Shown: positions 6,623 to 25,317 of the stretch, piece by piece | Layout of the letters: each line of letters opens with the position of its first letter | Position numbering within the stretch: the stretch's first letter is position 1 | DNA from: an uncultured Clostridia bacterium | Lineage (GTDB): Bacteria > Bacillota > Clostridia > Christensenellales > UBA1242 | Assembly (NCBI GenBank): GCA_934747765.1 | Contig: CAKVGZ010000002.1 | Span: 3,389-67,388, forward strand | Direction of reading: 5' to 3' | Length of the DNA: 64,000 nt | Position numbers and translations under genes: made by a program | The notes under the pieces: model-generated | Told to the model about the DNA's origin: nothing | What the model saw: only the letters and a program-made list of their open reading frames with translations | Database searches by the model: none

Positions 6623-7204
6623 CTAATTCAAATTTTGAAAAGCGCGCGTTATTATGTCTTCCGCTTTGTCACCTTCCATTGCGTTTTCTCTTGCAAGACG
6701 ATATGCATCGTTTTTGTTAACACCAAGAGCTATGAGCGCCTCTGTTGCTTCGTCAATTGCACTTTCATTTAACATTGGAACATTCTCTTCACTAAATCCA
6801 ACAATTGAAATTTTGTCTTTAAGTTCCAAAACTATTCTTTCAGCGGTCTTTTTTCCAAGTCCTTTTATTGAAGAAAGCAATTTTGTGTCTTCTGTTTTGA
6901 TTGCAACTGCAAGGTCCGAAAGCCTAATCCCTGAAAGAATGGAAAGAGCCACCTTTGGACCAATTCCAGAAACGCTTGTTAATTTCAAAAACATATCTTT
7001 TTCTTCCAAAGTCGAAAACCCGAACAAACTCAGTTCGTCTTCACGCACGTTCAAAAAAGTGTAAATTTTTGCAACCGCCCCAACTTGAGGAAGTGACGAA
7101 AGAGTTGTTTGAGAAACAAAAATTTCATAGCCAACAGAATTGTTTTCCACAACAACTGCATTTTCAGATTTCGATACTAATTCACCAACAATATAATTAA
7201 TCAT
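6623..7204 (-). CDS. ruvA: Holliday junction DNA-binding protein RuvA
   Basis: 193 aa with HhH motifs 'VSGIGPKVAL' and 'GLGKKTAERIVLEL'. Lies directly upstream of ruvB. Confidence 0.9.
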   Translation of the reverse strand: MINYIVGELVSKSENAVVVENNSVGYEIFVSQTTLSSLPQVGAVAKIYTFLNVREDELSLFGFSTLEEKDMFLKLTSVSGIGPKVALSILSGIRLSDLAVAIKTEDTKLLSSIKGLGKKTAERIVLELKDKISIVGFSEENVPMLNESAIDEATEALIALGVNKNDAYRLARENAMEGDKAEDIITRAFQNLN

Positions 7205-7256
7205 AAAAAAAGTTTAGCACAAATGATGCCAAACTGTAAACATTTTTCTTCAATTT

Positions 7257-7736
7257 TTAAATTAAACTTTGATTGAAGTTTGCATGAGTGATTGCAACAG
7301 CAAGCGCGTCCGCCGCATCGTCTGGTTTTGGAATTTTTTCAAGCCCCAAAATTGCCGTGACCATATATTGAACTTGCGCTTTTTCTGCCCTGCCATTTCC
7401 TGTTAATGCTTGCTTTATTTGAAGAGGTGTGTATTCAAAAATTTCTCCACAAGAATGAATCCCTGCAAGAAGAATTATTCCACGCGCCTCGGCAACAGGA
7501 ATGACTGTCGTTTGATTTTTGAAATAAAAAAGTTCTTCAATTGCCATTTGCTCGGGCTTGTATGTGTCAATCAGTTGCTTTATTGCATCATAAATCATTG
7601 CAAGCCTAACAGGGATGCTCTCTTCTTTTGGTGTTTCAATAACGCCATAATCTACCACTTTATATTCCCCGCCTTCATAGTCTATAACTCCAAAACCAAC
7701 TATGCCATAACCAGGGTCAATTCCAAGAATTCTCAT
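7257..7736 (-). CDS. ruvC: crossover junction endodeoxyribonuclease RuvC
   Basis: 'MRILGIDPGYG...GVIE' RuvC N-terminus. ATG 7736 was chosen over the upstream in-frame ATG at 7826, whose extension is hydrophobic junk. Confidence 0.88.
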   Translation of the reverse strand: MRILGIDPGYGIVGFGVIDYEGGEYKVVDYGVIETPKEESIPVRLAMIYDAIKQLIDTYKPEQMAIEELFYFKNQTTVIPVAEARGIILLAGIHSCGEIFEYTPLQIKQALTGNGRAEKAQVQYMVTAILGLEKIPKPDDAADALAVAITHANFNQSLI

Positions 7737-7850
7737 GAAAATATTATAATATAAGATAACAATAAAACCAAATGAAATATCATTTTCAACAAAATTCGCC
7801 CAAATGTACGAATATAAAAATATCAATATGAGAAATATTAGAATATAGTT

Positions 7851-8060
7851 ATGAAAATTCTACTACCTCAACGACTAACAAATTTAAGAATTGCAAGTGG
7901 TCTTTCAAAGCTTCAACTTGCAAATGCAATTTCTGTTTCAGACACAGCAATTGGCAAATGGGAAAATGGTTTGCGTCAACCAAGTTTGGCATGCCTATGG
8001 AAGTTGGCAGACTTTTTTGATGTAACAGTTGATTTTTTAATTGGAAGAGAAGAAGTTTAG
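7851..8060 (+). CDS. XRE-family helix-turn-helix transcriptional regulator (69 aa)
   Basis: 'LTNLRIASGLSKLQLANAISVSDTAIGKWENG' is a Cro/CI-type HTH. A -10 TAGAAT (7839-7844) lies exactly 6 nt before the ATG and there is no SD, so the mRNA looks leaderless. Confidence 0.85.
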   Translation: MKILLPQRLTNLRIASGLSKLQLANAISVSDTAIGKWENGLRQPSLACLWKLADFFDVTVDFLIGREEV

Positions 8061-8098
8061 TGCTATAATTCTTCTTAGAAGGATATAGCGATTTAAAA

Positions 8099-8605
8099 AT
8101 GAAAGAAATGCATAATAAAACTAACGAAAACATTCATTCAAAACACAGGCAAAGATTAAGACACATAATTTATAATTCAGATTTCGACAACTTGACAGAA
8201 ATTCAAATTTTGGAATATGTTTTAACATTATCCATTCCGCGAAAAGACACAAATCCAATTGCACATAGATTGCTCGACGAATTCAAAACAATTGCAAACG
8301 TTTTTGAAGCAGACTATTCGAGTTTGGTTAATATTGATGGAATTGGTTCAGAAACAGCAAAACATATCAAAGCGCTCAGCAAATTGTTTTATTACTATCG
8401 CACAAGTTCAACTGTCAAGAACGGCAAAGTGACCTTGAACACTCCAAACGATTTTATAAAACATTTCACACCATATCTTGAAAGCAAAACTGTTGAAGAA
8501 TTTTATATTGCTTGCTTAACAGCAAACAGCGAAGTGATAAAAACTGCTCTTATTGGAACAAGCACTTCGCGCTTCGGAATCACATTGTTCAAGCAAACTG
8601 TTTGA
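8099..8605 (+). CDS. RadC-like protein, C-terminally truncated (no JAB/MPN active site); possibly a pseudogene
   Basis: 'HRQRLRHII...LTEIQILEYVLTLSIPRKDTNPIAHRLLDEFKTIANVF...IDGIGSETAKHIKAL' matches the RadC N-terminal HhH region. The ORF stops just after 'LIGTSTS', before the expected HNHPSG motif. No continuation was found in other frames. Confidence 0.7.
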   Translation: MKEMHNKTNENIHSKHRQRLRHIIYNSDFDNLTEIQILEYVLTLSIPRKDTNPIAHRLLDEFKTIANVFEADYSSLVNIDGIGSETAKHIKALSKLFYYYRTSSTVKNGKVTLNTPNDFIKHFTPYLESKTVEEFYIACLTANSEVIKTALIGTSTSRFGITLFKQTV

Positions 8606-8632
8606 AATGGCAACTTTTAATAAATCCAAATT

Positions 8633-8668
8633 AACTTCCGACGATAATAAATAAGTCGGAAGTTTTTT
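8633..8668 (+). terminator. intrinsic terminator after the RadC-like gene
   Basis: 10-bp stem AACTTCCGAC/GTCGGAAGTT with a 12-nt loop, followed by TTTTTT. Confidence 0.8.
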
Positions 8669-8710
8669 CGTGCAATTTCAACAAACTTTCGTAGCAAAAA
8701 GACCTCACTA

Positions 8711-8739
8711 TTGACACACGTCCCAATTTAATGTACAAT
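8711..8739 (+). promoter_or_regulatory. consensus sigma-A type promoter of the metallophosphoesterase operon
   Basis: TTGACA (8711-8716), 17 nt spacer, TACAAT (8734-8739). Confidence 0.7.
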
Positions 8740-8766
8740 ATGATTGTTTAATAAAGGAGAGTGATT

Positions 8767-9909
8767 ATGACAAATAATTCAAATGAAGACTTCTCTGGGG
8801 GCGAGAAGATAAGCAACAAGAAGAACCTAGGAAGCGACGTTTTCAGACTTGAAAAAAGACTTTATGAAAAAGGCAACCCAATTGCAAAGGCGTATGATGA
8901 GATTGTGAAAAGCGAAGCACCAAAGCCAATCAACCACCTTTTCTACGACCTTTCAGACACAGACCATTTTGATTTGTTGGTTTTAACCGACAACCACTGG
9001 GGCTCGATATCTTCGCATTTTATGGCAACAGTGGCAGCCCAAATGATGGCAAAATATGTTCCTTCAATATACATAGGATATAACGGAGATAACAGAAACA
9101 ATGCGCTCAACACAGAGCAATGCGTTTCAAGTCCACTTGACAATGCGCTTTCTCCAGTTATTGAATTAAAACTTTGGTATGATGTTTTGGCAGATCCAGT
9201 TATCAGAGAAAAGGTTCTGTTCATCAATTCAGGAAATCATGACAATGGCGAACGAACAAAAGACATTGGAACAGATATTCTTGCAACAGCTTTTGCTGGC
9301 ACACCATATTTCGAGAGATATTCTCGTTTTGCAACGCTCTTAACAGTTCGTCTAAAAGCAGACAACAAGGTTGGCAAAGTTGGCTATGAAGATGTTAAGA
9401 TTTATATCGACCATGGCAATGGCCTTGTTGGAGGCGATGGAAACAAATTGGATGCAGGAATGAAACTTGCAAGACAATATGGTGCGCGAATTGCAATTTT
9501 CGGCCACGTCCACCAAGACATGTCGGCAGACTATCGCGTTGAAAATCTCGTTGACCCAAATGGAAGCAAAACAGTGAAGAACGACCTGACATGCATAGTT
9601 CTTCCAGCCACCTTAGGTCAAGAAACTTATGCTCTAGACAAGAGATATGAAACTGCTCCAAGCGACTTGAAATTGATTCGAATTGGAACAAAAGAAAATG
9701 ATTATCTTCTAGGTTCAACTCAAAGAGAGCGTCGCACTCTTCCAAAAACTTCAATCTATTGCGATTGCACTCCTATTCCAAATAAACTTTGGAAGTTTGC
9801 AATGAGTGAAGCAAACAGACTTCGTGAAAAGTTTGAAAACATTCAAAGCAACACAAATTTGGTCAACAAAAAACTTAAAGATATAATCGAAACATATTAT
9901 CAAAATTAG
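8767..9909 (+). CDS. calcineurin-like metallophosphoesterase (Mre11/SbcD-type motif set)
   Basis: All five motifs are readable: 'LVLTDNHWG' (DxH), 'YNGDNRN' (GD), 'NSGNHDNG' (GNHD), 'IYIDHGNG' (H) and 'IFGHVHQD' (GHxH). The ATG at 8767 lies 6 nt after AAAGGAGA; the ORF-track start at 8761 is a GTG abutting the SD. Confidence 0.75.
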   Translation: MTNNSNEDFSGGEKISNKKNLGSDVFRLEKRLYEKGNPIAKAYDEIVKSEAPKPINHLFYDLSDTDHFDLLVLTDNHWGSISSHFMATVAAQMMAKYVPSIYIGYNGDNRNNALNTEQCVSSPLDNALSPVIELKLWYDVLADPVIREKVLFINSGNHDNGERTKDIGTDILATAFAGTPYFERYSRFATLLTVRLKADNKVGKVGYEDVKIYIDHGNGLVGGDGNKLDAGMKLARQYGARIAIFGHVHQDMSADYRVENLVDPNGSKTVKNDLTCIVLPATLGQETYALDKRYETAPSDLKLIRIGTKENDYLLGSTQRERRTLPKTSIYCDCTPIPNKLWKFAMSEANRLREKFENIQSNTNLVNKKLKDIIETYYQN

Positions 9910-9919
9910 GAGATGACGT

Positions 9920-11062
9920 ATGGCAAATCTTGACAGAATAATTTCTAAAGGCTATCAAAACAGGCTAAAAAAAGAAAGAGAAACAAAAGGTCTTTATGAC
10001 ACAATTTATGTGCCAGAAAACCAAAAAACAATAAATCTTCTTCCAATCCAAAATTTGTTTTATGGAAACGACAAGTGTCCCCCACGATTGGAAATATTAC
10101 TTGACCACATCAAAAGAATTAACGATTTAGAAGAAGGTGCTTTCTTCATTGGCGGAAATTTGTTCTATTATCCAGCAGGCAACACAGAAAAGAAGGAAAA
10201 TCTTGCAAAAGGTTACATAGACGACGTTTCAGAAATATTGCGAGTTGCCGACAAGAACAAAATTTTGTTTATGTATAACGGAGTTAATGAAGGAAAGTTC
10301 ATTAATGACAGAACTTTGAAATATCCAATTGAAACAAGCAAAATTGTGGCTCAAAATTTGGGCATAGAAGACAAGTATTATGATGACAACAAAGCAGAAA
10401 TAACTTTTGTTTTCAACAACGCATTAACAAACTACAGTCAAGAAATTTTGAAATGTTTGTTCACAAGCCAAGGTCCAATTTCAACCACAACAAATGCAAT
10501 TGCAACAAAACTTAACAGCATTGCAAACAGCAACATCAACAAGGGCGTTATAGTGGACACAAGTTCTTCAAAATTTTACACTAAAAAGAAGATTGTCAAT
10601 CGTTCAAAAGACCCTCTAACTTCAGTCTATCAAGACTTAACCTTGATAAGCACAGCAGGCTACACATCAATGCCTCAAGTTGCAACTTCAAAACAAATCA
10701 ATGAATATGCTTTGAATGAGAGATATATTGAGCTCAAAATTGAACAAAAGAACCCTGTGTTCCACCAAGATTCAATAAGAGCAACAAATACAATCAAAGA
10801 TGACGAATTTGATAGAACAGCAACTTGCCTAACAATTGGCGTAAATTACGATTTGTATTTTGATGAAGAATTGTTCAGAAGATTGAATGATGTTTTGTTT
10901 GAAAATGTTTATACAAAAGAAAGCCTCAAAGGAAAACTGGAAGAAAAGAGTGAACAAAACTTGCACGAATCAAGCAAAGAAATTTATAACGAAATGAAAG
11001 AAAAGCAAAAGCAAGAAAACAAACCAAAATCTATAGGACCAGCACCATACGTGTTTGAATAA
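9920..11062 (+). CDS. degenerate (probably catalytically inactive) paralog of the upstream metallophosphoesterase
   Basis: Similar size. Motif positions are decayed: 'LLPIQNLFYGN' replaces DxH, 'FFIGGNLF' replaces GDxxD and 'YNGVNEGK' replaces GNHD. It shares 'EYALNERY' with 'TYALDKRY' in the upstream protein. SD TAGGAGAT. Confidence 0.55.
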   Translation: MANLDRIISKGYQNRLKKERETKGLYDTIYVPENQKTINLLPIQNLFYGNDKCPPRLEILLDHIKRINDLEEGAFFIGGNLFYYPAGNTEKKENLAKGYIDDVSEILRVADKNKILFMYNGVNEGKFINDRTLKYPIETSKIVAQNLGIEDKYYDDNKAEITFVFNNALTNYSQEILKCLFTSQGPISTTTNAIATKLNSIANSNINKGVIVDTSSSKFYTKKKIVNRSKDPLTSVYQDLTLISTAGYTSMPQVATSKQINEYALNERYIELKIEQKNPVFHQDSIRATNTIKDDEFDRTATCLTIGVNYDLYFDEELFRRLNDVLFENVYTKESLKGKLEEKSEQNLHESSKEIYNEMKEKQKQENKPKSIGPAPYVFE

Positions 11063-11070
11063 GGAGAAAA

Positions 11071-11331
11071 ATGGAATTAGGAATTGAAACAAGGGGCACA
11101 AAAAATTATTGTAAAACTTGTGGGCACGAACTTAATATGGATGTGCAAAATCAAATATACAATTTTTGTCCATTCTGCTCTGCTCCGCTGAATCTTGTTG
11201 CTTTCAACTTTGTTAAAGAAAAAGAAAAAAGCATAAAATTCCAAGCAGTTGAAGAAATCATTCACATGACTAAACGAAAAGAAGTGTTGGAAATATTAAA
11301 AGAATATCTTGACAGAATTTCAATCGAATAG
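11071..11331 (+). CDS. small zinc-ribbon protein (86 aa)
   Basis: 'CKTCGHE...(18)...CPFCSAP' gives two CxxC knuckles. SD AAGGAG 5 nt upstream. Last gene of the operon. Confidence 0.6.
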   Translation: MELGIETRGTKNYCKTCGHELNMDVQNQIYNFCPFCSAPLNLVAFNFVKEKEKSIKFQAVEEIIHMTKRKEVLEILKEYLDRISIE

Positions 11332-11368
11332 TCCTATATCAAAAAATTAAAGCATAAAATACCCATGT

Positions 11369-12115
11369 ATGAAAATATGTGGGTTTTTTAATAAAAGAAA
11401 AAAGAAAAAATTATCGCCAAAATCTTTCAGAAATATCTTTGCAAACGTAATAATAGGCTGTTTGCTTATTGGTTTGTTTGCACTAACATACACGGGCGGA
11501 ACATTGAATGCTTCTTCACCTTCAAAAGAAGAAGCGGTTTATCATGGCAATATAAATTCAAAAAATATTTGTTTGATGATAAATGTTTATTGGGGCAACG
11601 AATATCTCGACTCAATGCTTAAAACTTTGAAAGACAACAATATTAAAACAACGTTTTTCGTTGGAGGAACTTGGGCAAACCAATACCCTGACCTTTTGAA
11701 AAAAATATATGATGATGGCCATGAAATTGCCAACCATGGATATTATCACAAAGACCATAAAAATATTTCTTATGAAAAAAATAAAAAAGAAATTGAAGAT
11801 AATCACAATTTGATCAAAAAATTGCTTGGTTATGAAATGAAATTGTTTGCTCCCCCAAGTGGGTCATATTCGCAAACCACTTTGGAAATTGCAAAGGACC
11901 TTGGCTACACCACAATAATGTGGACGCGCGACACAGTTGATTGGAGAGATAAAGATGCCAACACAATTTATCAGCGTGCAATCAAAAATGCATCTGGAGG
12001 CGATTTAATTTTAATGCATCCAACCGAAAAAACCGCTGAAGCCCTTCCTAAAATAATTAAAAAATTAAAAAATGATGGATTTAATTTAACAACTGTTACA
12101 GAATGTTTGAAATAA
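11369..12115 (+). CDS. membrane-anchored NodB-type polysaccharide (peptidoglycan) deacetylase, PdaB-like
   Basis: N-terminal TM segment, then 'TFFVGGTWA', 'HEIANHGYYHKDH', 'LFAPPSG' and 'MWTRDTVDWRD' (NodB homology motifs). There is no obvious SD and the ATG lies in a weak hairpin, so the start is uncertain. Confidence 0.8.
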   Translation: MKICGFFNKRKKKKLSPKSFRNIFANVIIGCLLIGLFALTYTGGTLNASSPSKEEAVYHGNINSKNICLMINVYWGNEYLDSMLKTLKDNNIKTTFFVGGTWANQYPDLLKKIYDDGHEIANHGYYHKDHKNISYEKNKKEIEDNHNLIKKLLGYEMKLFAPPSGSYSQTTLEIAKDLGYTTIMWTRDTVDWRDKDANTIYQRAIKNASGGDLILMHPTEKTAEALPKIIKKLKNDGFNLTTVTECLK

Positions 12116-12216
12116 AAAAATAATAAAATTAATAAATAAATAATAAAAAAATAAGTTTTTTAATTAAAATTAACGAAAAAATTAATATTTTTTAAATAAT
12201 ATAAAAAATAAATAAT

Positions 12217-12250
12217 AAAAAACGGAGCAAAATGCTCCGTTTTTATTTTT
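12217..12250. terminator. bidirectional intrinsic terminator between the deacetylase and the holin genes
   Basis: Stem ACGGAGC/GCTCCGT with loop AAAAT, flanked by an A-run and a T-run. Confidence 0.75.
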
Positions 12251-12258
12251 TCAGATAA

Positions 12259-12597
12259 TTATTTTTCTTTAATATTTTCTTCAATTTTTTCATTTTTTTC
12301 TTCAGTATTTTCTTCTTGGGTTTTTTCGTTTTCAGCCAATTCTTCTTGAATTTCTTCACCAAGAATTTTGCTATTATTGTCGTCTTCATCATCAGACTCA
12401 TCGTTTGTTCCTTTGTTATTTGCAGGCATTGTAACAACGCCCAAAACAACAAGCAACCCAGCAACAGCCATGATAATGTCGTTAATCAATTTTCCATCGG
12501 CAATAAATCCAACTGCTCTACCAATAGTTTCAATGAGCACAACAACGGCACCTGAAAGACTGACCCAAAAACTGTAATTTTTGAACAAATTTTTCAT
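12259..12597 (-). CDS. phage holin, LL-H/phi-LC3 (Phage_holin_1)-like, with acidic C-terminal tail
   Basis: 'KNYSFWVSLSGAVVVLIE...IMAVAGLLVVLGVVTMPANNKGTNDES' follows the family pattern KN..FW...(TM)...LLV.LGI..DPTTKG.SDS. Strong SD GGAGGAGGAG. ATGA overlap with the upstream gene. Confidence 0.65.
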   Translation of the reverse strand: MKNLFKNYSFWVSLSGAVVVLIETIGRAVGFIADGKLINDIIMAVAGLLVVLGVVTMPANNKGTNDESDDEDDNNSKILGEEIQEELAENEKTQEENTEEKNEKIEENIKEK

Positions 12598-13022
12598 AAC
12601 TCCTCCTCCTTTGGAAAAACAATTTTCTTAATTTCCTTAACGTCATTTTTAACGCCTTTGACGTCAGCCGAAACTTTTTTTATCATTTTTGAATGACTTT
12701 TCAAACTTGCATCAATCGACTCAATTGATGCTGAAGTTTTTTCAATCTTTCCGCTCAGCGAAGATGTTTGTTCTGAAACATGATTTATAATCTCTCTGCT
12801 TTCATCAAGGTCGTCCTTAATCGAGTCGACAGTGTCTTTAACATCTTCGACTTTATCGTCAAGATGAGTAACAGTTCCCAAGTTTTTGTTTAAAGAACTT
12901 ATTGTGTCTGTATATTTCTTTTCTCTTTTTGAACTGTCTTTCAAAAGATACATTAACAGCCCAACAAAAAGCGTTGCAAAAATTCCGTTAGATATGACAA
13001 TGTTTATAATATCTTGCCACAT
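12594..13022 (-). CDS. BhlA/UviB-family holin-like protein with extended coiled-coil tail
   Basis: The N-terminus 'IVISNGIFATLFVGLLMYLLKDSSKREKKY' resembles BhlA/UviB ('..QGPFAVLF..LLFYVLKE..KRE.KY'). Confidence 0.6.
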   Translation of the reverse strand: MWQDIINIVISNGIFATLFVGLLMYLLKDSSKREKKYTDTISSLNKNLGTVTHLDDKVEDVKDTVDSIKDDLDESREIINHVSEQTSSLSGKIEKTSASIESIDASLKSHSKMIKKVSADVKGVKNDVKEIKKIVFPKEEEL

Positions 13023-13028
13023 TACATT

Positions 13029-13952
13029 TTAGTCCTTTCTGCCCAAAATTTGTGCAACAATTGCTGGATAATAATTTCCTAATAAATTTGTGTACACTTT
13101 TTCTTTCTTCACTTCTTCAATTGCTTTGTCTTTTGGAAGTTTCATCAAATAGTCTTTAACAACATCAAATCTTTCTTTCAAAATTTCTGCAGTGAACTTT
13201 CTTTCCCCAAGTTTTTCTTTTAAAGCAAGAAGTTCTTTGTTCTTTTTTTCAATTCTGTTTTGTTCTGAAAGATTTATTTTCTCTTGTTTAATTCGATTCT
13301 CTTCTTCAAGTTTGTCAACATTTTTGTTAAATTTCAAAACTTCTTCTTGTTGTTTTGCAATTTCTTTGTTGATGCTTGCAATTTTGTTGTCAAGTTTTAA
13401 GGCATAAGAAATGTCAAAACTTCCAAGAGCGTTGTCTTTTTGTTGCTCCAAAATTTCACGTTCATTTTCAAGCTTTGAAACTTGCTTTTTGAAATCGTCT
13501 TCAATTTTTGAAAGTTCAGAATTTTTTGCCCCTTCAATTGCATTAACTGCATCTTCAAAAATTGATGAACGAGAAATTCCTTGTTTGATGGTTTTGTTTG
13601 TTGCTTTTCGAAGTGAGTTGGCATAGTCGCTGAAAACTTTTTCAACGTCTTCGTTTCTATCTTCCTCAAGGTCAAGGGATTTTGAATCAAGTGACGAAAA
13701 TTTTGTGTCGTAGTTGTCTTGTATCTTTTTCAATCCATTTTCTTTTTCAGCTTTCAGCAAAGATTCGGCTTCCGATTTAATGTCATCCTCGCTTGGCTTT
13801 TCGAATGTTTTCTTTTCCAATCCCAAAGAAGTAATTTCGTTTGGAGTGAACTCTTCAAGCGAATATTTTTTGTCAATTTGACCAAGCTTCTCCATAACTT
13901 CTTGTTGGTCTTTATCTAATTCATCATCTGAAAAAATTTTATAATTGTACAT
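13029..13952 (-). CDS. coiled-coil structural protein of unknown role (307 aa from ATG 13952)
   Basis: Perfect SD (CCTAGGAGGTG, then 6 nt) before ATG 13952. An alternative start at 14033 forms an ATGA overlap with the upstream stop. The sequence is dominated by K/E heptad-like helices. Confidence 0.55.
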   Translation of the reverse strand: MYNYKIFSDDELDKDQQEVMEKLGQIDKKYSLEEFTPNEITSLGLEKKTFEKPSEDDIKSEAESLLKAEKENGLKKIQDNYDTKFSSLDSKSLDLEEDRNEDVEKVFSDYANSLRKATNKTIKQGISRSSIFEDAVNAIEGAKNSELSKIEDDFKKQVSKLENEREILEQQKDNALGSFDISYALKLDNKIASINKEIAKQQEEVLKFNKNVDKLEEENRIKQEKINLSEQNRIEKKNKELLALKEKLGERKFTAEILKERFDVVKDYLMKLPKDKAIEEVKKEKVYTNLLGNYYPAIVAQILGRKD

Positions 13953-14029
13953 GCTTACACCTCCTAGGTTATTAAAATTTTGAATGTTTTTGTCTTTAAT
14001 TGCCTTCTTGGCTTGCGTTGTGGAAATTG

Positions 14030-15538
14030 TCATCTGCTAATTCCAAAAGTGATTTCAGGTGCAGAAATATCTACCAAACTTCCAATTGTTTCAATCTTAA
14101 ATTGGAACATTTCTCCTTTCAAATTTGGATAGAACACAGAAGTGACATCTTTGCCTTTCACTTCAAAGCTTTTTTCTTCCACGTCTGTCTTTATCTTCAC
14201 AACGCAATCTTCCTTCGTGAGCAAAGTCACCTTTTCAATCTTTTTGATTTTGTCTGGAAAACCCAAATTTGAATATGATGATGCCCAAACTTTCTTAAGT
14301 GCAGTTCCAAACACTTTTCCACTGTGGTTCATTTCGCCAAGTTTCTTTTTGTGTTCGTTGTTAAAAAGAACTGCAAGTTTGTTAACTGTTTCATATTCAA
14401 TTGAGCAAAGAGATTTAAGGTCAACTCCTCTTGTCAAAGAAATATCCCCTGTCTTAAGGTCAAGTTCAATCAGCGAATTATTGACGTAGCCTCCCATGTA
14501 ACCTTCGCACCCAATAACTTCGCCGTCATCATACTTCAAACGACATCCGAGATAGTATTTTCCGTTGTGATAAGCACAACAACAATTGTCGTTGTTTTCT
14601 GCAAATAATGATTCAATGTTTAACGAAAGTTTTGTTGCAGAATATCCGTTGAAAGAATATATTCCATCTCTGGAAAGGAACATAATTCTGTCACCACAAA
14701 CACAAACAGAATTTCCATATATCTTTCCGCTTGTGACAAACACACTAGACAAGTTAAATTCAGTTTGGTCGCCATAAGCCGACAATCTTGAAATTCCATA
14801 TTGTTTGAAAATATAGACATAATCGTTGAAACTGACAACTTTTTCCAAACATCCGCGGTCATCAATTATTTCGATATAACCTGCTTCGTTTTCCCCCGTC
14901 CAGTTTGTTGGGTCAAGGTTTGCGCTGAACAAAAGTTTGTTTCGTTTTCCTTCTTCAATTGCAAAAACTCTTTCATAGTGTCTGCAAATTGAAATAATCT
15001 TTGGCGCATTGGAATCAAGAGTTGCAATTGACGTTGGATGAAAAACATACATTCCATCAGTTGCAGAAGTTATCAACATAACATCGTTTCCGTTGATGTT
15101 GTAATAAACAGCATTTGGTTCGGATGTGAATGCAAGTTGATTTGTTATGTCTATGTTAAAAAATCCTGGGTCTATGCTTATAATATTTGCAAATTTAACT
15201 TTGTTGTCATGGCTCAAAACAAGCATATTGTCACGGACGTTGTAGGTTGTGTTATAGAATGGAAAAAGCCAAAGTTTGTTCAACTGTGTGAATGTTCCTT
15301 CAACAAACATTTTTCTCATTTCTGGATTTTCGTCGGTTGTTTCGGGAAGATATAATTCGTCAAATCCAATTCCAGTTTGAAGAGCCCCACGTTTGAATAT
15401 GTAATTGTATGTGACTTTTGCATATTTGTAGGGCAAGGAATTTTCGTCTGTTTCAGTGTTTATTCCATACTTAAAAGTTGAAAGAGTGAGTTTGTAGGTT
15501 GATTTGTTTTTTAAAAGAAGTTTGTTTTCATAAATCAT
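14030..15538 (-). CDS. large beta-rich virion protein, possibly a tail hub/nozzle (tubular-protein-B-like propeller)
   Basis: 502 aa. SD GGAGGTG 6 nt before ATG 15538, which forms TAATG coupling with the upstream stop. Repeated 'G.IY.F.G..' beta-blade-like segments. It occupies the position of gp12 in a T7-type gene order. The functional call is positional. Confidence 0.35.
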   Translation of the reverse strand: MIYENKLLLKNKSTYKLTLSTFKYGINTETDENSLPYKYAKVTYNYIFKRGALQTGIGFDELYLPETTDENPEMRKMFVEGTFTQLNKLWLFPFYNTTYNVRDNMLVLSHDNKVKFANIISIDPGFFNIDITNQLAFTSEPNAVYYNINGNDVMLITSATDGMYVFHPTSIATLDSNAPKIISICRHYERVFAIEEGKRNKLLFSANLDPTNWTGENEAGYIEIIDDRGCLEKVVSFNDYVYIFKQYGISRLSAYGDQTEFNLSSVFVTSGKIYGNSVCVCGDRIMFLSRDGIYSFNGYSATKLSLNIESLFAENNDNCCCAYHNGKYYLGCRLKYDDGEVIGCEGYMGGYVNNSLIELDLKTGDISLTRGVDLKSLCSIEYETVNKLAVLFNNEHKKKLGEMNHSGKVFGTALKKVWASSYSNLGFPDKIKKIEKVTLLTKEDCVVKIKTDVEEKSFEVKGKDVTSVFYPNLKGEMFQFKIETIGSLVDISAPEITFGISR

Positions 15539-16107
15539 TAAATCCACCTCCGTTTTGGCAAACGAATGTCGGATTTTTTGCGTGATGCAATGATAAGTCC
15601 GTCTTTAAATCTCTTTTCCCAAATTGACGCGTCGTCGTGAAGTCCACAAATAAACGAATATTCCATGGCCACGCCATAAGCAACAACTCTATCCGAAATC
15701 TTTTGTGAAAATTGTTCCATTTCAGAACTCAAATTTGAAAGCGCTGTTGGCTGAAACGAATAAGTTACTTCAACATCTCCGTCAATTGTTTCAATATATG
15801 AAGGAAAAAGTTTATAGTTGGTTTTAATGCCAAACTTATCTTTAACTTGCAAAACATCTATCAAGTCTTTCGAAAAACTTGAAAGTTGAATTTTTCCATT
15901 AACTGGAGTTAATTTTTCTCGATTGATGAGCGGAATATAATCGGATGCAATCTCACTGATAACAAGATTAAAACATCTCAAAAGGTGTTCAAGTTCTTTT
16001 GTTTGAGAACTTGTTGCCGTTTCTTGACCGTCCAATTCGGTAACATCCAATAACTCATCTTTTTGAAGAAAAACGCAAGCAGTTTTAATAATGTTTTTTG
16101 CCGTCAT
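15538..16107 (-). CDS. virion protein, possibly a head-tail adaptor (189 aa)
   Basis: SD AAAAGGAGAAAAT before the ATG. Size and position downstream of the capsid gene match an adaptor (T7 gp11-size). No motif recognised. Confidence 0.3.
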   Translation of the reverse strand: MTAKNIIKTACVFLQKDELLDVTELDGQETATSSQTKELEHLLRCFNLVISEIASDYIPLINREKLTPVNGKIQLSSFSKDLIDVLQVKDKFGIKTNYKLFPSYIETIDGDVEVTYSFQPTALSNLSSEMEQFSQKISDRVVAYGVAMEYSFICGLHDDASIWEKRFKDGLIIASRKKSDIRLPKRRWI

Positions 16108-16127
16108 ATTTTCTCCTTTTAAATTTT

Positions 16128-16451
16128 TTAATATTTAATTTCTTCAAGCAATCTGTCCTTTGCTTCATATAAAATTCTTTTGTTGTTTCTTTCTTCTAAA
16201 ATTTCATTTTCTTTGTCTATTTCTTTAATCAACTTTTCTTTGTTTTCAACTTTCGTTTTGTTAACAAAATCGATTGTTCTTGCATCAAGATATTGGAAAG
16301 GGACAGTTAAGCAATAACTGTCCCCTATCTGACCAACATTGTGAACTTCGAATTTGTTTGTTTTTGTGTTATAAAAAACACGATAATCCTTATCAATTTC
16401 TTTTAGCCTTTGACAAATAAACAAAACATCATTCAAAATTTCAATTTTCAT
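16128..16451 (-). CDS. hypothetical phage protein (107 aa)
   Basis: Intact ORF, tightly packed between the capsid and adaptor-size genes. Confidence 0.5.
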   Translation of the reverse strand: MKIEILNDVLFICQRLKEIDKDYRVFYNTKTNKFEVHNVGQIGDSYCLTVPFQYLDARTIDFVNKTKVENKEKLIKEIDKENEILEERNNKRILYEAKDRLLEEIKY

Positions 16452-16468
16452 AACCTATTTTTTAACCT

Positions 16469-17686
16469 CTATGCTGTCGCATCTGTCGTTGTGGTAGAAG
16501 CAAAAGGATTTGTAACAGTTGACGAAATGCCCGAAATTTTTCCTTGAGCATTAGGTTTGTTGCAAATAAGGTCAGCATATTTAACAAGTGTAGCTGAATA
16601 TGTTGCTTCGTTTGCGTTTTGTTTGATAACCTTTCCATCATCTCCTTCAAGCCATTTCCAATCGCATAGTTGATGTAAAGTGAATTCATCAGTGTTAAGA
16701 AGATACATTTCGTCTTTTTTAACAAATCTATCTGCATAAACAGGAATTCCATTGTATGTGATTGCTTTGTATCCGCCAGCAAGGTCCATAACATCAATGT
16801 TTCTTTTGTAGTATGACAAATATGTTTGGTATGCTTTTCTAACGTCACGTGAACATGTGATGAAGTTTGCGGATGTTCCACCAATTTCTTCCAATGAATC
16901 TAATCCAGCTTGAATTGTTGCATCAGAAATTTCTTTAGTGGTTGAATCTTTGTATGGAGTGAGCCAAGGATAGTTAGCTTTTGTGAGTCCATAAAGTGAA
17001 GTGCCTGTTCCGAAGATAGCGCCAAGACCTGTTATTTCAAGGCCTTTAGAATTTTGAACAAACACTGTGTAATCTTTTGCAACTGTCAATCCAGAAGCAG
17101 CAGTGTCAAGATAGAACTTATTGTTAGCTCTATCAACATAAGAAATTCTGTGTCCGCTTGAAGCAGGAACTTTTGTGGCAGAATTATAAATGTCAACAAC
17201 CATGCCTTCAATCAAATTTCTGACGCTGTCAACAGTTATAGCACCATCGCTAGAACTAAAAGCCGTCACAGTTGCCAAAAGACCTGAGCCGTCGCCATAC
17301 AACATTCTTCCAAAGTTGAAACTGCTTGCTTTAACAAGTCCTTCCATTTCAGCATTTAAAAGGTTAACAAAAGCACCTGCGTTGTTTGCAGAAGCTCTCA
17401 TAGCTTTGTCTGAAATAGAAATTTTTCCGTAAAGGTTTTTAAGGTCTGTAACAAATTGCACATATTGGTTTTCTGCAGCATTTGGAAGAGAACCAGTTTC
17501 TGTTCCAGCGCCAATTCCGCCGTTAATTCCATAAGGTGCAAGTTTGATAATTTGTTTTCCCCAAACATCAGATGTAGATTGTTCAATCTTGCTGAGAAGA
17601 GGGTTTGCATTTGTGTTTAATTGATTTGCAACAACGCCCAAATAAACATTTTTAAGAGCATTGCTTGCGCTTGTTAATGAAACCAT
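16469..17686 (-). CDS. phage major capsid protein (HK97-fold expected)
   Basis: 405 aa, immediately after the scaffold-like and portal genes. SD TAGGAGAT. Composition and segments such as 'ISISDKAMRAS...GAFVNLLNAEMEGL...RMLYGDGSG' are typical of major capsid families. Not verified by a search. Confidence 0.65.
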   Translation of the reverse strand: MVSLTSASNALKNVYLGVVANQLNTNANPLLSKIEQSTSDVWGKQIIKLAPYGINGGIGAGTETGSLPNAAENQYVQFVTDLKNLYGKISISDKAMRASANNAGAFVNLLNAEMEGLVKASSFNFGRMLYGDGSGLLATVTAFSSSDGAITVDSVRNLIEGMVVDIYNSATKVPASSGHRISYVDRANNKFYLDTAASGLTVAKDYTVFVQNSKGLEITGLGAIFGTGTSLYGLTKANYPWLTPYKDSTTKEISDATIQAGLDSLEEIGGTSANFITCSRDVRKAYQTYLSYYKRNIDVMDLAGGYKAITYNGIPVYADRFVKKDEMYLLNTDEFTLHQLCDWKWLEGDDGKVIKQNANEATYSATLVKYADLICNKPNAQGKISGISSTVTNPFASTTTTDATA

Positions 17687-17708
17687 TTTTATCTCCTAGT
17701 AATAAATT

Positions 17709-18380
17709 TTAGTTTTTAAAGAATTTTTCAGCCAATGCTTTCGCATCGCTGAGATTGTTTGGTTTGCTTGTTTTGGTCAGCAAACTTATTCCACCTTTGA
17801 TTCCGCTTCCGATAACAGGCGGAGCCTTTCTGATTTCATCTAAATAATTTCCAATAACTTTCTTTTTAACGTCGTCGTTAGAAAGAACAAATTTCTCCAT
17901 GAACGAAGACTCGCTTGCAAGTTTGTCGGGTGTTTTGAAATTTTTGGATAACACCCTTCCCCATGCAATTTCCAACATATCGGGCGAATTTCGAAGGTTT
18001 TCATCTTTCAAAATTTCGTTAGAAATTTCACGCGAAAATTCTTTGGCTTGCTCGTTTTGCACCAAAAATTCTGCAACACGAGTTCTCCAATCTTCATTTT
18101 CATAAGCCGGAGAAACAGGTTTTGTTTCATCTTCCGAAGTTTCATGCGTTTCTTTTTCGGCAAATTCTTTTTGAATTTCGCTTAATTTTTGGCATTTTCT
18201 TGTGAATTCTGCTTGAAGATTATTGTACGCGTTAACAAGATCTTCTGCACACGAGAATTTGCCGAATGGGGAGCCCTCCTCTTGCGACGTAGTGGCACCG
18301 CTTTTTTCATTTTCAACAATCCTTCCTAATGCTTGCTCGCTTTGTGATGGTTGTTCCCCAGTTTCAAAATTTTCTTCCAT
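17709..18380 (-). CDS. capsid scaffolding-like protein (223 aa, acidic, helical)
   Basis: Lies between the portal and capsid genes. E/D/K-rich and predicted helical. SD TGGAGAAAA. Confidence 0.5.
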   Translation of the reverse strand: MEENFETGEQPSQSEQALGRIVENEKSGATTSQEEGSPFGKFSCAEDLVNAYNNLQAEFTRKCQKLSEIQKEFAEKETHETSEDETKPVSPAYENEDWRTRVAEFLVQNEQAKEFSREISNEILKDENLRNSPDMLEIAWGRVLSKNFKTPDKLASESSFMEKFVLSNDDVKKKVIGNYLDEIRKAPPVIGSGIKGGISLLTKTSKPNNLSDAKALAEKFFKN

Positions 18381-18395
18381 AAATTTTCTCCATTT

Positions 18396-20282
18396 CTATT
18401 TATTTTCAATTGAACTTTCAATTGCTTTCATTTGCTTGTGAATTCTTATGTGTTTGAGCACAGTTTCAATTAATTCAGGATTTGTTTCAGCTTTCTTTTC
18501 TGCATCGCGGCCAAGCAAGAATGCAGTGTGCTCAGTTATGTGAATGTCGTGGTCGTCAACTTCCAGCGGACTAACCTTCTTTCCTTCAAGGAATTTTATG
18601 TTCTCGTTGGAAGCTTTTTTCAAATGTAATTCATTTATGTCTTGCGCATTTTCCCAAACACCAAATCCCAAAAGGTCAAGGGCTTTAACTCTCATTCTGT
18701 TAGAAAGTTTTCCGTTTTCGTCGTATAAAAGCCCCGCATTCAACAAATCAAACACCATGCTACGCTTTTGAGCAACACTTTCGCCAACTTCGTTGCCTGT
18801 TTCAAAAATAATGTCATCGCTCGATATGTCTGATGCGTTGAAATAGAACACCTCAACATCTCCATTGTCACCAACAATTTTTGAAAGTCTAGGAACAGTT
18901 GCATATTGCCTATACAATCTCAAAACGTGCTTAGCCATTGTTTTAATTGCTTCGCGAATCTTTTCTGCTGTGACCGAAATTCTTGTGTCGTCTTGTTCCA
19001 CCAAAACTTGAAGTGCAACACCTGAAAGTTGTGAATAGCTTGCCACAGAATTTCTGAGTAAATCTGAAACACCACTTATGTAACTGAACTCATTCAACAA
19101 AATTGCTTCTTCTGCACTAAAATCAACTGGAACACGGTCAAAGTTCATGAATTTAGGCGGGGTTGAACCTTGTCTGTAAATCAAAACTTTGCCTGGCGAC
19201 AATCCGTCGTCTTCCAAATTGTCTGTATCAATCGAACCATCCTCAACGGTCAAAACTCCCATCGAGAGCCTGTTCATAAATTCATGCTTTCTGTTCTTCA
19301 ATGTGTTATATGAACGTTGAACAGGAATCAATCTTTCAATGATGCTTGAGCCCCAGAAACAACCAGGGTGTTCAATGCAAGTTTGTCTTATGAAAGGAAA
19401 AGATCTGTCGCCGTCGTTTCCATTTAAATATGGCAGTTCCGACAGATGCACAAGCTTGTCGCCCGCCACTATAATCAAACGTCCGTTAGGAAAATCAACT
19501 GTTGGACTTTCATATTTTTCAACAACAATTGCATAATTGTTTCTAACCCCGCTAACCACTTTTCCCGCGTTGCCAAAGTATCCGTATCCGCCAATGGCCT
19601 GAACATTGTCAAGTGAAAACACATTGATGTCTTCGCCTTTAACGTCAACACCCCAAATGGATTTTATGTCATCAACATGGTAAGCTCTTGCATGAATGAT
19701 AGACTTGCAGTCGTTTATATCGTTGCAACTTGAACTTTCAGGATAAATTTCGAATGGTGGACAAACTGTAACTTCAATTTCTCCAGTTGCAACTTTTCCT
19801 TTTTCGTTGCTCGTCAGAACGTTTCCTTTGCTGGAATTCCATGCAACTTTGTAAAAACTTGTTCCGCAAACTTCACTCCAGTTGTTTGCTTCGGAAATCA
19901 CTCCGCTCACACAGAGTTTATTGTAGATTGAATTCACAATCTTTTTCGAAACAGTTGCAGTTTTGATATCACGTTCATCACCGGATGCAGGAACAACAGT
20001 CATTGTTGGTTTAAGCGTCAAAAGTTTGGCAAGCCTTGCTTCAATAATTGGTGCAATATGGTTGTAAACTTCGCGTTCTTGCCAGAAAAACTGTTTGTCA
20101 TATTCTTCAACTTCCCCTGAAGGACCAATTGAACAATATTGATTTCCCATCAAAAAGTTCATGTTAAGTTCCCATTGTGCTTCGAAACTTTTTCTGTCTT
20201 CTTGACGTTTTTTGAAATCTTCAAGAACTTCTCTGACCAAATCCTCTTCAAAAATTTCTTCTTTTTCTAATTCTTTTTTCAT
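18396..20282 (-). CDS. phage portal protein
   Basis: 628 aa from ATG 20282 (SD TTGGAGGTAAG). The N-terminal 'RKSFEAQWELNMNFLMGNQY...REVYNHIAPIIEARLAKL...P...VVPASGDERDI' matches the common portal signature R..fE..W..N..fy.GnQw...N.i..ive. Confidence 0.7.
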   Translation of the reverse strand: MKKELEKEEIFEEDLVREVLEDFKKRQEDRKSFEAQWELNMNFLMGNQYCSIGPSGEVEEYDKQFFWQEREVYNHIAPIIEARLAKLLTLKPTMTVVPASGDERDIKTATVSKKIVNSIYNKLCVSGVISEANNWSEVCGTSFYKVAWNSSKGNVLTSNEKGKVATGEIEVTVCPPFEIYPESSSCNDINDCKSIIHARAYHVDDIKSIWGVDVKGEDINVFSLDNVQAIGGYGYFGNAGKVVSGVRNNYAIVVEKYESPTVDFPNGRLIIVAGDKLVHLSELPYLNGNDGDRSFPFIRQTCIEHPGCFWGSSIIERLIPVQRSYNTLKNRKHEFMNRLSMGVLTVEDGSIDTDNLEDDGLSPGKVLIYRQGSTPPKFMNFDRVPVDFSAEEAILLNEFSYISGVSDLLRNSVASYSQLSGVALQVLVEQDDTRISVTAEKIREAIKTMAKHVLRLYRQYATVPRLSKIVGDNGDVEVFYFNASDISSDDIIFETGNEVGESVAQKRSMVFDLLNAGLLYDENGKLSNRMRVKALDLLGFGVWENAQDINELHLKKASNENIKFLEGKKVSPLEVDDHDIHITEHTAFLLGRDAEKKAETNPELIETVLKHIRIHKQMKAIESSIENK

Positions 20283-20329
20283 CTTACCTCCAAATAATTT
20301 TTTATATAAAGCAAATGTTTTGCGATATA

Positions 20330-20617
20330 TCACTTTTTATAATTTTCAAGAATTTCCAGCAATCTAAGTTTTTCTCTCATAAGTTCTTCCTCTGTCATGT
20401 CGGAATAAACTTCGGTTTTTGTTTCCAATTTGTCCAAAAGCATTTTTACCGCACTTAAATCTGGTGAAATATGTTTTTTTGTCACTTTTCGTTTGCTGAG
20501 TTTGTAATCTCCACCTTCGTCCAAAACAAACTCTTCAACAACTTCGTTCGTATCATATCCGAACGCTTTTTTATATAATGCGTTCGTAATTTCCTTTTCC
20601 AAATTCTTTTTTCTCAT
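20330..20617 (-). CDS. terminase small-subunit-like protein (short, 95 aa)
   Basis: 'ALYKKAFGYDTNEVVEEFVLDE.G.YKLSKRKVTKKHISPDLSAVKMLL' resembles the '..LYKRA.GYEYEE...(x)..K..PPD..A..WL' block I associate with Firmicute phage TerS proteins. First gene of the structural operon. Start taken at ATG 20617. Confidence 0.4.
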   Translation of the reverse strand: MRKKNLEKEITNALYKKAFGYDTNEVVEEFVLDEGGDYKLSKRKVTKKHISPDLSAVKMLLDKLETKTEVYSDMTEEELMREKLRLLEILENYKK

Positions 20618-20623
20618 AAAAAA

Positions 20624-20680
20624 ACACCACACAATTTGAATTTTGTTCAAATTATATGGTGTCTGATGGTTGAAAGTAAA
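20624..20680 (-). promoter_or_regulatory. putative promoter of the structural operon overlapped by an imperfect palindrome (operator candidate)
   Basis: TTTACT (20675-20680), 18 nt spacer, TATAAT (20651-20656) on the minus strand. Inner inverted repeat AATTTGAA/TTCAAATT (20633-20640 and 20646-20653); outer inverted repeat ACACCA/TGGTGT (20624-20629 and 20657-20662). Confidence 0.4.
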
Positions 20681-20693
20681 ATATGTCTGCCAA

Positions 20694-21245
20694 CTAAATA
20701 TCTTTTTTGTCAAAAAGGTCCGAAATCATCAAAGCCTTAATAACAGGAGGAAGTTCGTTGATTTCCTCTGCTAGTGATGTTTTTTTTGTTAAAGAAGTTC
20801 GCTTGAGTTCTTCCAAGAAATCTTTAATCTCTTCATCATCGCCGTCAACACTTCCATCCGAAATGAAATCGAAAGACGGTTTATCAACAATTCTTGGCGA
20901 CCTTCTAGGAATGTATTCGCTTCCAAACAGGTCGTCAAAATCCTGATTTATCGTCAAATCGCTGTCATCACTTTCTTCAAAGTAGTTTTTAGGTTTTTCT
21001 TCAAACAACTCTTTTATTTCAAGATTTTCCTCGTTAACTTTTGTGTCCGGATCTTCTTTGCTTTCAAATAGCCCGCCTGGATTTGTTATCACAGTTGGAT
21101 TGTTTGATTCAATTTTCTTGGTTTTCTTATGCTTTTCTTTCTTTTCTTTTTTTGGTCTTGATGCCAGTTTTTTAAATAAAGGAAAAAGATAATAAATTGT
21201 TATGCCAACAACCAAAACCCCAAGTCCAACAAAAAGCCAAACCAT
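20694..21245 (-). CDS. hypothetical membrane-anchored acidic protein (183 aa), last gene of the nfeD-floA operon
   Basis: N-terminal TM segment, a K-rich linker and a D/E-rich body. SD GAAGGAGGGG. Confidence 0.6.
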   Translation of the reverse strand: MVWLFVGLGVLVVGITIYYLFPLFKKLASRPKKEKKEKHKKTKKIESNNPTVITNPGGLFESKEDPDTKVNEENLEIKELFEEKPKNYFEESDDSDLTINQDFDDLFGSEYIPRRSPRIVDKPSFDFISDGSVDGDDEEIKDFLEELKRTSLTKKTSLAEEINELPPVIKALMISDLFDKKDI

Positions 21246-25237: not shown

Positions 25238-25317
25238 TTTTCTTCCTCCTAATTTTTTCTTAATCTTGCTATGCTATTATAGCATAAAAAGCCTTTTTGT
25301 CAACTTATTTTTCAAAA

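Follow-up and report, generated by a model that had tools for sequence, protein, structure and literature searches.

Several systems built on the metallophosphoesterase (MPE) fold invite comparison with the three adjacent genes at positions 8711-11331 of the window analysed here, a stretch of 64,000 nucleotides (C2:3389-67388) from the metagenome-assembled genome of an uncultured gut Clostridia bacterium, G000 (795,862 bp, 35% GC, estimated completeness 96.7%). Mre11/SbcD works as a dimer of two MPE subunits, and PolD DP1 and the eukaryotic polymerase B-subunits join an active or inactivated MPE-fold subunit to a small zinc module. The phage MPEs of family phrog_7339 (for example those of Bacillus phages Stahl and Slash, Brevibacillus phage Jenst and Geobacillus phage PK3.5) measure about 260 aa, each encoded by a lone gene in the early region of a phage or prophage, and their exonuclease label was given by similarity only. 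One phage MPE, Gp48 of mycobacteriophage A10ZJ24, has been found experimentally to degrade or damage host DNA (PMC12287305), a precedent for such an enzyme acting as a DNase in phage-host conflict. The trio described here codes for a 380-aa MPE with intact active-site motifs (P1), a 380-aa paralog of P1 that has lost the catalytic ligands and is predicted to be a pseudoenzyme (P2), and an 86-aa zinc-ribbon protein (P3). Our best overall explanation, which we hold tentatively and to which we give slightly less than an even chance, is that the three form an obligate unit, an ATPase-independent MPE with a single live site that acts on nucleic acid and is carried as an accessory cassette, a role in genetic conflict being ranked first among its possible functions.

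The trio shares with Mre11-Rad50/SbcCD a binuclear MPE fold followed by extra C-terminal structure, and the P1-P2 pair, together with the P1-P2 fusions described below, mimics the MPE dimer. It differs in having no ATPase and one dead site, with a zinc-ribbon subunit in the place of the ATPase. The phrog_7339 enzymes are the nearest relatives by sequence and structure and share the five-motif active site of P1; unlike them, the trio is found on bacterial chromosomes among housekeeping genes. Compared with the phage MPE it has extra N- and C-terminal extensions, which include a long terminal helix, and two further components, the duplicated dead copy and the zinc-ribbon subunit. The resemblance to PolD DP1 and the polymerase B-subunits is one of layout only: Foldseek gave TM-scores of about 0.3-0.37 for P1 and P2 against all MPE families in the PDB, and DP1 did no better than the others. 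Gp48 is likened to P1 by description and is a lone protein used by the phage against its host. The first-pass annotation of this DNA could not assign the trio to any named system, and PADLOC, Pfam, PHROGs and PDB indeed give nothing specific: in PADLOC-DB v2 P1 matched only PDC-S10 (E 0.006), and PDB sequence searches with the P1 and P2 profiles returned nothing meaningful. As far as such comparisons can tell, the trio lies outside Mre11/SbcD, the PADLOC systems and phrog_7339 in the strict sense, and matches no described system.

P1 (8767-9909, plus strand) begins at an ATG behind AAGGAG, and a GTG at 8761 would give an alternative protein of 382 aa. The five calcineurin/Mre11-type motifs that had been claimed for it are all present, as LTDNHWG, NGDNRNN, SGNHDNG, DHGN and FGHVHQD, and they correspond to the D-x-H, GD, GNH(D/E), H and GHxH motifs that hold the binuclear metal ligands of the MPE superfamily. 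Among 16 homologues, down to 16% identity, D75, H77, D108, H158, H216, H247 and H249 are invariant, and N157 of the GNHD motif is conserved in at least 90%. The best family match is phrog_7339, 'DNA repair exonuclease' (E 2e-8; residues 62-299 against positions 24-242 of a 263-position profile). Pfam PF00149 (Metallophos) scores P1 at 18 bits (E 0.004), under the gathering threshold of 21.5, and several P1 homologues have a precomputed match to this family. From N- to C-terminus the protein has a helical extension, the MPE core, a region rich in beta structure and, over residues 339-379, a long helix. Foldseek matches of its AlphaFold2 (AF2) model (pLDDT 66) are MPE folds, including Mre11/SbcD, PolD DP1 and polymerase B-subunits, and these support membership of the predicted structure in the superfamily despite the sub-threshold PF00149 score. 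P1 is thus predicted to be an active binuclear metallophosphoesterase. It is not the SbcD of this organism by the TIGR00619 sbcd model, which does not report P1 and has as its sole match in the same genome (2e-7, below cut-off) a secreted MPE at C1:195536. The genome holds two further MPEs, one of 245 aa and cytosolic (C1:373743) and one of 382 aa, secreted or a lipoprotein (C1:194891).

The fold matches also bear on the chemistry of the trio. PP5-type protein phosphatases are among the top PDB matches of P1, the best matches in BFVD, those of the P2 model, are labelled 'ApaH type', and the isoelectric points of P1, P2 and P3 are uninformative, not being consistently basic as a set. The trio could then be a phosphoesterase for a non-polymer substrate, such as a signalling nucleotide, an Ap4A-type dinucleotide, a cyclic oligonucleotide or a phosphoprotein, in which P2 and P3 would be regulatory, and the MPE superfamily does span all of these chemistries. 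We consider this quite unlikely. The nearest sequence family is annotated as an exonuclease, if by similarity only, literature searches on experimentally studied phage MPEs found one, and it is a DNase (PMC12287305). In addition, the motif set of P1 and the beta-rich region after its core would, from what is generally known of these motifs, resemble Mre11/SbcD-like enzymes. A nucleic acid as the substrate of the complex is slightly favoured.

P2 (9920-11062, plus strand) had been described as a paralog with mutated motifs, and the strings given for them (QNL, GGNLF and GVNEG) are present. Over 22 P2 sequences motif I reads Q/S/H-N/D-L, motif III G-x-x-E and motif V G-Y, so that only scaffold Gly, Glu and Tyr residues are invariant and the metal ligands are gone. 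P2 has no family match in Pfam, PHROGs or PADLOC searches, and its relation to P1 is not evident from simple comparisons. Pairwise BLASTP of P1 and P2 was not significant (best E 0.54), nor was hhalign with narrow profiles of close homologues, which aligned only a spurious PI(Q/N)(N/H)LFY stretch; the shifted motif register suggested by that alignment was dropped after distant homologues showed SD(L)xxG and GGD. Broad profiles that included distant members from whole-genome searches aligned with 97.8% probability (E 9e-13, 266 columns) and placed motifs I-V in register, with the P2/P1 pairs LLPIQNLFYG/LLVLTDNHWG, GGNLF/NGDN and NGVNE/SGNHD, which confirms the equivalence that had been claimed. 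Distant P2s retain SDLxxG and GGD remnants, the P1 HMM picks up P2s from other genomes with E as low as 9e-17, and the P2 HMM detects some P1s and single-gene phage enzymes.

The AF2 model of P2 (pLDDT 80.7, pTM 0.70) matched almost exclusively MPE folds in the PDB (purple acid phosphatase, Mre11, PolD DP1, LpxH, YydB), and small phage MPEs in BFVD far better than anything in the PDB (E 1e-12, TM up to 0.70), so the modelled protein has the alpha-beta-beta-alpha sandwich of the MPE fold. Profile alignment, HMM cross-detection and model together bear out the proposal that P2 is a true paralog of P1, with catalysis predicted to be lost. Two details of that proposal did not stand. The shared block EYALNERY/TYALDKRY exists in both proteins, but the two strings lie about 8 residues out of register in the significant alignment, and their likeness is coincidental. 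The label 'decayed' is misleading as well: among vertically related species P2 is 78/61/59/56% identical, near the values for P1 (85/71/66/64%) and for the neighbouring deacetylase (84/73/68/67%), and because of this P2 is better regarded as an old conserved pseudoenzyme, apparently under purifying selection, than as a gene in decay. Its long C-terminal helix spans residues 316-366. P2 of the type found in the window ends in an aromatic-x-Phe-Glu tail (Y-x-F-E, 11051-11062), with F379 and E380 invariant in 27 sequences; the tail comes after a poorly conserved linker, and comparable hydrophobic-acidic ends are found on other P2 types. This tail might be where a partner docks.

P3 (11071-11331, plus strand) has a CxxC...CxxC arrangement and a helical C-terminal half. 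Its four cysteines (C14, C17, C33 and C36) are conserved in 11/11 aligned homologues, in keeping with the 86-aa double-CxxC zinc ribbon first described, and there are weak zinc-ribbon matches in Pfam and a weak similarity to the Cas10 zinc ribbon in PADLOC-DB v2 (E 3e-4). The three genes are closely spaced on the plus strand behind a promoter, with 10 nt between P1 and P2 and 8 nt between P2 and P3, and the Shine-Dalgarno sequences overlap the preceding stop codons. The three-gene operon is upheld by this arrangement, and its products are predicted to be translationally coupled.

Close homologues of these proteins are very rare: a set of 5.8 billion proteins yielded 19 clusters for P1 and 43 for P2, one of 1.84 billion proteins yielded 11 representatives, and 185,579 species genomes yielded 5 close trio loci. 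The distribution of the trio was followed in a family sample of 121 genomes from 58 genera, Clostridia of 0.6-1.6 Mb. A narrow P2 profile undercounted it (7/121 genomes in the family, 1/201 in the order) and was replaced by a broad P1 profile, which gave 38 matches in the family, about 35 of them real, in about 18 of the 58 genera; this profile is specific, since the other MPEs of G000 are not matched. When sixteen further loci were fetched, P1 was followed by P2 in all of them and the P3 HMM found the next gene in 15, with gaps of -38 to +27 nt between the genes. The triad, whose joint travel the first-pass annotation had wished to see surveyed, does therefore travel together, with P1-P2 alone at one locus.

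Three genomes encode P1 and P2 as one fused protein of 829-884 aa, in which the N-terminal site is intact and the second domain dead, and the P3 gene comes next (L038 3752-6406 in G290, L039 4573-7062 in G275 and L042 2053-4629 in G310). One genus, g147, has both fused (G275, G310) and unfused (G228) forms, which come from distant clades. Because of these fusions, the tight coupling seen everywhere and the joint change of type described below, P1, P2 and P3 very probably form a physical complex.

The relation between trio and host lineage was most informative in the genus of G000, where trios of three deeply divergent types occupy the slot between radC and the deacetylase. In two congeners, G237 and G313, both scored by the narrow profile as lacking the trio, this slot contains three genes of the same sizes. 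Compared with G000, G237 is 23% identical in P1 and 35% in P3, its P2 is not detectable by BLAST, and its RuvC is 92% identical; G313 is 24% identical in P1 and 32% over 28 aa in P3, again with a P2 not detectable by BLAST, and its RuvC is 86% identical. In the genus as a whole RuvC is 79-92% identical, P1 only about 23%. Profile comparison showed that G237, too, pairs an active MPE (E 4.5e-14) with a dead paralog (E 1.5e-6). In the P1 tree (IQ-TREE) the congeners fall into three clades, and in each of these the sister belongs to another genus (99-100% support): G237 groups with g132, G313 with g147, and both G000 and G280 with g146 and g130. The same kind of split affects genera g156 and g147.

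Identities of RuvC, portal and deacetylase place G237 at least as near to G000 as G280, yet it is G280 that has the trio type of G000. Because G280, no nearer to G000, keeps that type, the trio has evidently been swapped at this slot as a whole unit. All three genes change type jointly, as seen from P1/P2/P3 identities of 40/40/35% between G237 and G303 and 35/35/33% between G313 and G228. The incoming cassettes thus have no sampled relative closer than 35-40% identity, so either the donors are unsampled or the alleles are old. With a P1 tree that contradicts taxonomy, the trio is, on the evidence of these comparisons, an accessory element and not part of the core gene set.

The ancestry of the cassette lies with phage MPEs. 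Elsewhere in the order, beyond the family, searches with the P1 profile gave only lone MPEs of about 260 aa in prophage-like regions, which the P1 and P2 HMMs match at 1e-35 and 1e-15. Relatives of these prophage enzymes occur in Bacillus, Geobacillus, Brevibacillus and Eggerthella phages, labelled 'DNA repair exonuclease' or metallophosphoesterase, and single phage-type MPEs of about 260 aa nest among the trio P1s in the IQ-TREE tree. On this evidence P1 and P2 descend from small phage-type MPEs.

From these results we propose a mechanism in which a small phage-type MPE duplicated to give P1 and P2, which would form a pseudo-symmetric heterodimer equivalent to the Mre11/SbcD homodimer but with only the P1 site live. 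The long C-terminal helices of P1 and P2 and the helical half of P3 would hold the complex together, and the zinc ribbon of P3 may supply recognition of substrate or partner. The whole would act on nucleic acid as a Mn2+-type phosphodiesterase or nuclease that needs no Rad50/SbcC ATPase, functioning most like a dimeric nuclease of the Mre11 type.

The lack of an ATPase partner noted by the first-pass annotation agrees with our searches. No SbcC/Rad50-type ORF is present in 7000-13500, and strong AAA_23 matches in G000 are limited to frames of 1218, 568 and 387 aa, all elsewhere, which by size would be SMC, RecN and RecF. A genome search found no SbcCD in G000. This raises the possibility that the trio is a housekeeping nuclease for DNA ends or replication intermediates, either an ATPase-free substitute for SbcCD/Mre11-Rad50 or a module for proofreading or an accessory task in the manner of DP1, passed on with the chromosome. 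It is the main rival to the accessory-cassette reading, and several observations fit it. The trio lies on the chromosome behind a strong promoter of constitutive type; within one trio type it is under purifying selection at ordinary rates; its Foldseek matches include Mre11, PolD DP1 and polymerase B-subunits; and its neighbours frequently belong to DNA or nucleotide metabolism (ruvCAB and radC here; elsewhere nrdDG and mazG, recX and dut, a UvrD-like helicase, or Pol I). Moreover, true SbcD occurs in 21/121 genomes and the trio in 35/121, with both in only 2 (odds ratio 0.21, Fisher p 0.035, uncorrected for phylogeny).

That test takes no account of shared descent, however, and 67/121 genomes have neither trio nor SbcD, which speaks against simple replacement. 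Whole-cassette swaps between 23%-identical alleles and a tree in conflict with taxonomy would be unusual for core repair genes. As to a DP1-like module, the secondary structure of the AF2 models shows helical N-termini and no OB-fold domain in P1 or P2, and no polymerase gene adjoins the trio in the window (Pol I does so in 1/19 loci). We therefore regard a housekeeping nuclease as improbable.

A role of the trio in genetic conflict is ranked first because of its patchiness (about 30% of genomes), its varied neighbourhoods and the replacement of alleles as whole cassettes. The complex might restrict phage or other foreign DNA, or it might be a domesticated form of a phage host-takeover function. 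We infer such a role from the exchange pattern, the patchiness and the phage ancestry, and hold a conflict or defence function as possible but rather doubtful. A more specific form of it, in which the trio is an undescribed module against phage or foreign DNA, a single-site Mre11-like heterodimer in which a phage nuclease, now domesticated, works with its own dead copy and no ATPase, with the zinc ribbon as sensor or latch and with cassette swapping at fixed chromosomal slots keeping it polymorphic in this family of minimal-genome gut Clostridia, we consider unlikely.

Several results weigh against the cassette reading or its conflict role. None of the defence-system models in PADLOC-DB v2 was matched significantly by P1, P2 or P3. 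The 95 flanking proteins of 19 loci gave housekeeping Pfam families and only generic helicase or methyltransferase cross-matches in a defence-island test, so the defence or anti-defence role suggested by the first-pass annotation draws no support from its surroundings; these neighbourhoods are uninformative either way, as genomes of 0.6-1.6 Mb may simply scatter their genes. Searches of 50,697 phage records by tblastn with P1 and P2 gave no match, and a scan of IMG/VR contigs with the P2 profile did not find the trio. MPE motifs and Foldseek scores fail to separate nucleases from other phosphoesterase chemistry. Finally, one locus (L032 1932-4650, in G295) is the sole one to lack P3. Its P2 is 494 aa long with an acidic C-terminal extension, a Ham1-like gene lies directly 3', and the genome has a true SbcD. 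A fusion of P2 with P3 in G295 was considered and excluded, as the long P2 has no CxxC.

A further reading starts from the genes around the trio. In the window the order is ruvC, an HTH gene, a radC fragment, the trio, a polysaccharide deacetylase, a convergent capsid cluster running from holin to portal, and floA, and this layout is common to five related species. The cluster (12259-21245, minus strand) contains two holins, DUF7934, a 505-aa structural protein, a major head protein, a P22-type portal and a small-terminase-like gene, and no large terminase was recognised in it. The trio could be an early, recombination or DNA-packaging module of this cluster, for example the nuclease of a terminase-less particle, and the shared order of HTH, radC, trio, deacetylase and cluster in five species, the phage ancestry of the trio and the lack of a recognised large terminase would all agree with that. 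The distribution largely refutes it, and we judge it very improbable. The portal is a single-copy gene, 44-83% identical, in 118/121 genomes and 58/58 genera, against about 35/121 for the trio. The two adjoin only in this lineage; in the other trio-bearing genomes compared they are on different contigs or far apart. In a related lineage (L005/L006) trio and deacetylase are followed by yebC, with the cluster absent there, and in G237 the trio is at ruvC and the cluster elsewhere.

The trio is also found between an aminoacyl-tRNA synthetase and nrdDG in genus g130, and elsewhere beside recX and dut or beside a UvrD-like helicase and a signal peptidase. Because it occurs on other contigs, at a yebC-flanked locus and among varied housekeeping neighbours, the trio is not tied to the capsid cluster, and the earlier description of it as sitting on a phage-derived element does not hold for the family. 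The cluster itself is a conserved family-wide feature rather than an ordinary prophage. It is syntenic in five relatives (major capsid protein 87-92% and portal 82-93% identical) and has the look of a capsid-forming element that was domesticated and is passed on vertically, perhaps similar to a gene transfer agent (GTA).

The promoter reported upstream of P1 was found exactly as described: a sigma-70-type sequence at 8711-8739 (plus strand) with TTGACA at 8711-8716, a 17-nt spacer and TACAAT at 8734-8739, which matches 11/12 consensus positions and is the top-scoring promoter-like site within 7700-12400. A scan of both strands for TTGACA-N16-18-TATAAT, with a cut-off of at least 11 of 12 positions, gave 15 sites in the window against 2.2 +/- 1.6 in Markov-1 random sequences (about 7-fold enriched), and promoters of the source organism appear to be unusually near to consensus. 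A perfect 12/12 site is found at 25303 on the minus strand.

About 45 nt upstream of the trio promoter lies a hairpin with a T-run (8633-8669, plus strand; AACTTCCGAC ... GTCGGAAGTT), read directly from the sequence, as its 13-nt loop exceeds the limit of 8 used in the hairpin scan, which hence missed it. It is predicted to terminate the truncated upstream radC-like gene and to insulate the trio operon. This radC-like gene (8099-8605) is cut to 168 aa and retains an HhH region and no more than the beginning of the JAB domain; orthologues in relatives have 263-312 aa and a full RadC domain. RadC is unusually divergent between congeners, only 36-47% identical against 79-92% for RuvC. After P3 the scan found a terminator-like hairpin with a T-run (11361-11390, plus strand; the hairpin itself 11361-11384). 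The gene of the membrane-anchored polysaccharide deacetylase has its start codon, at 11369, within this hairpin, with a TAAAAT box 8 nt upstream and no Shine-Dalgarno sequence, which suggests that the deacetylase transcript may be leaderless or controlled by read-through.

What is new here are the P1-P2 fusions, the three trio types in one slot and the family-wide counts. Pseudoenzyme partners of active paralogs are a recurring route to regulated nucleases, and in this family three states are captured, as separate genes, fused genes and single-gene phage ancestors, which make a clean evolutionary series. Such a series would show how a homodimeric phage nuclease turned into an asymmetric cellular machine. 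If the trio is truly an ATPase-free nuclease, it would represent a new architecture for the processing of DNA ends or foreign DNA. That it is kept in genomes of 0.8 Mb without SbcCD, and that its alleles are about 23% identical across species whose RuvC is 92% identical, suggests that its function matters to selection and is contested in these reduced, as yet unculturable Clostridia.

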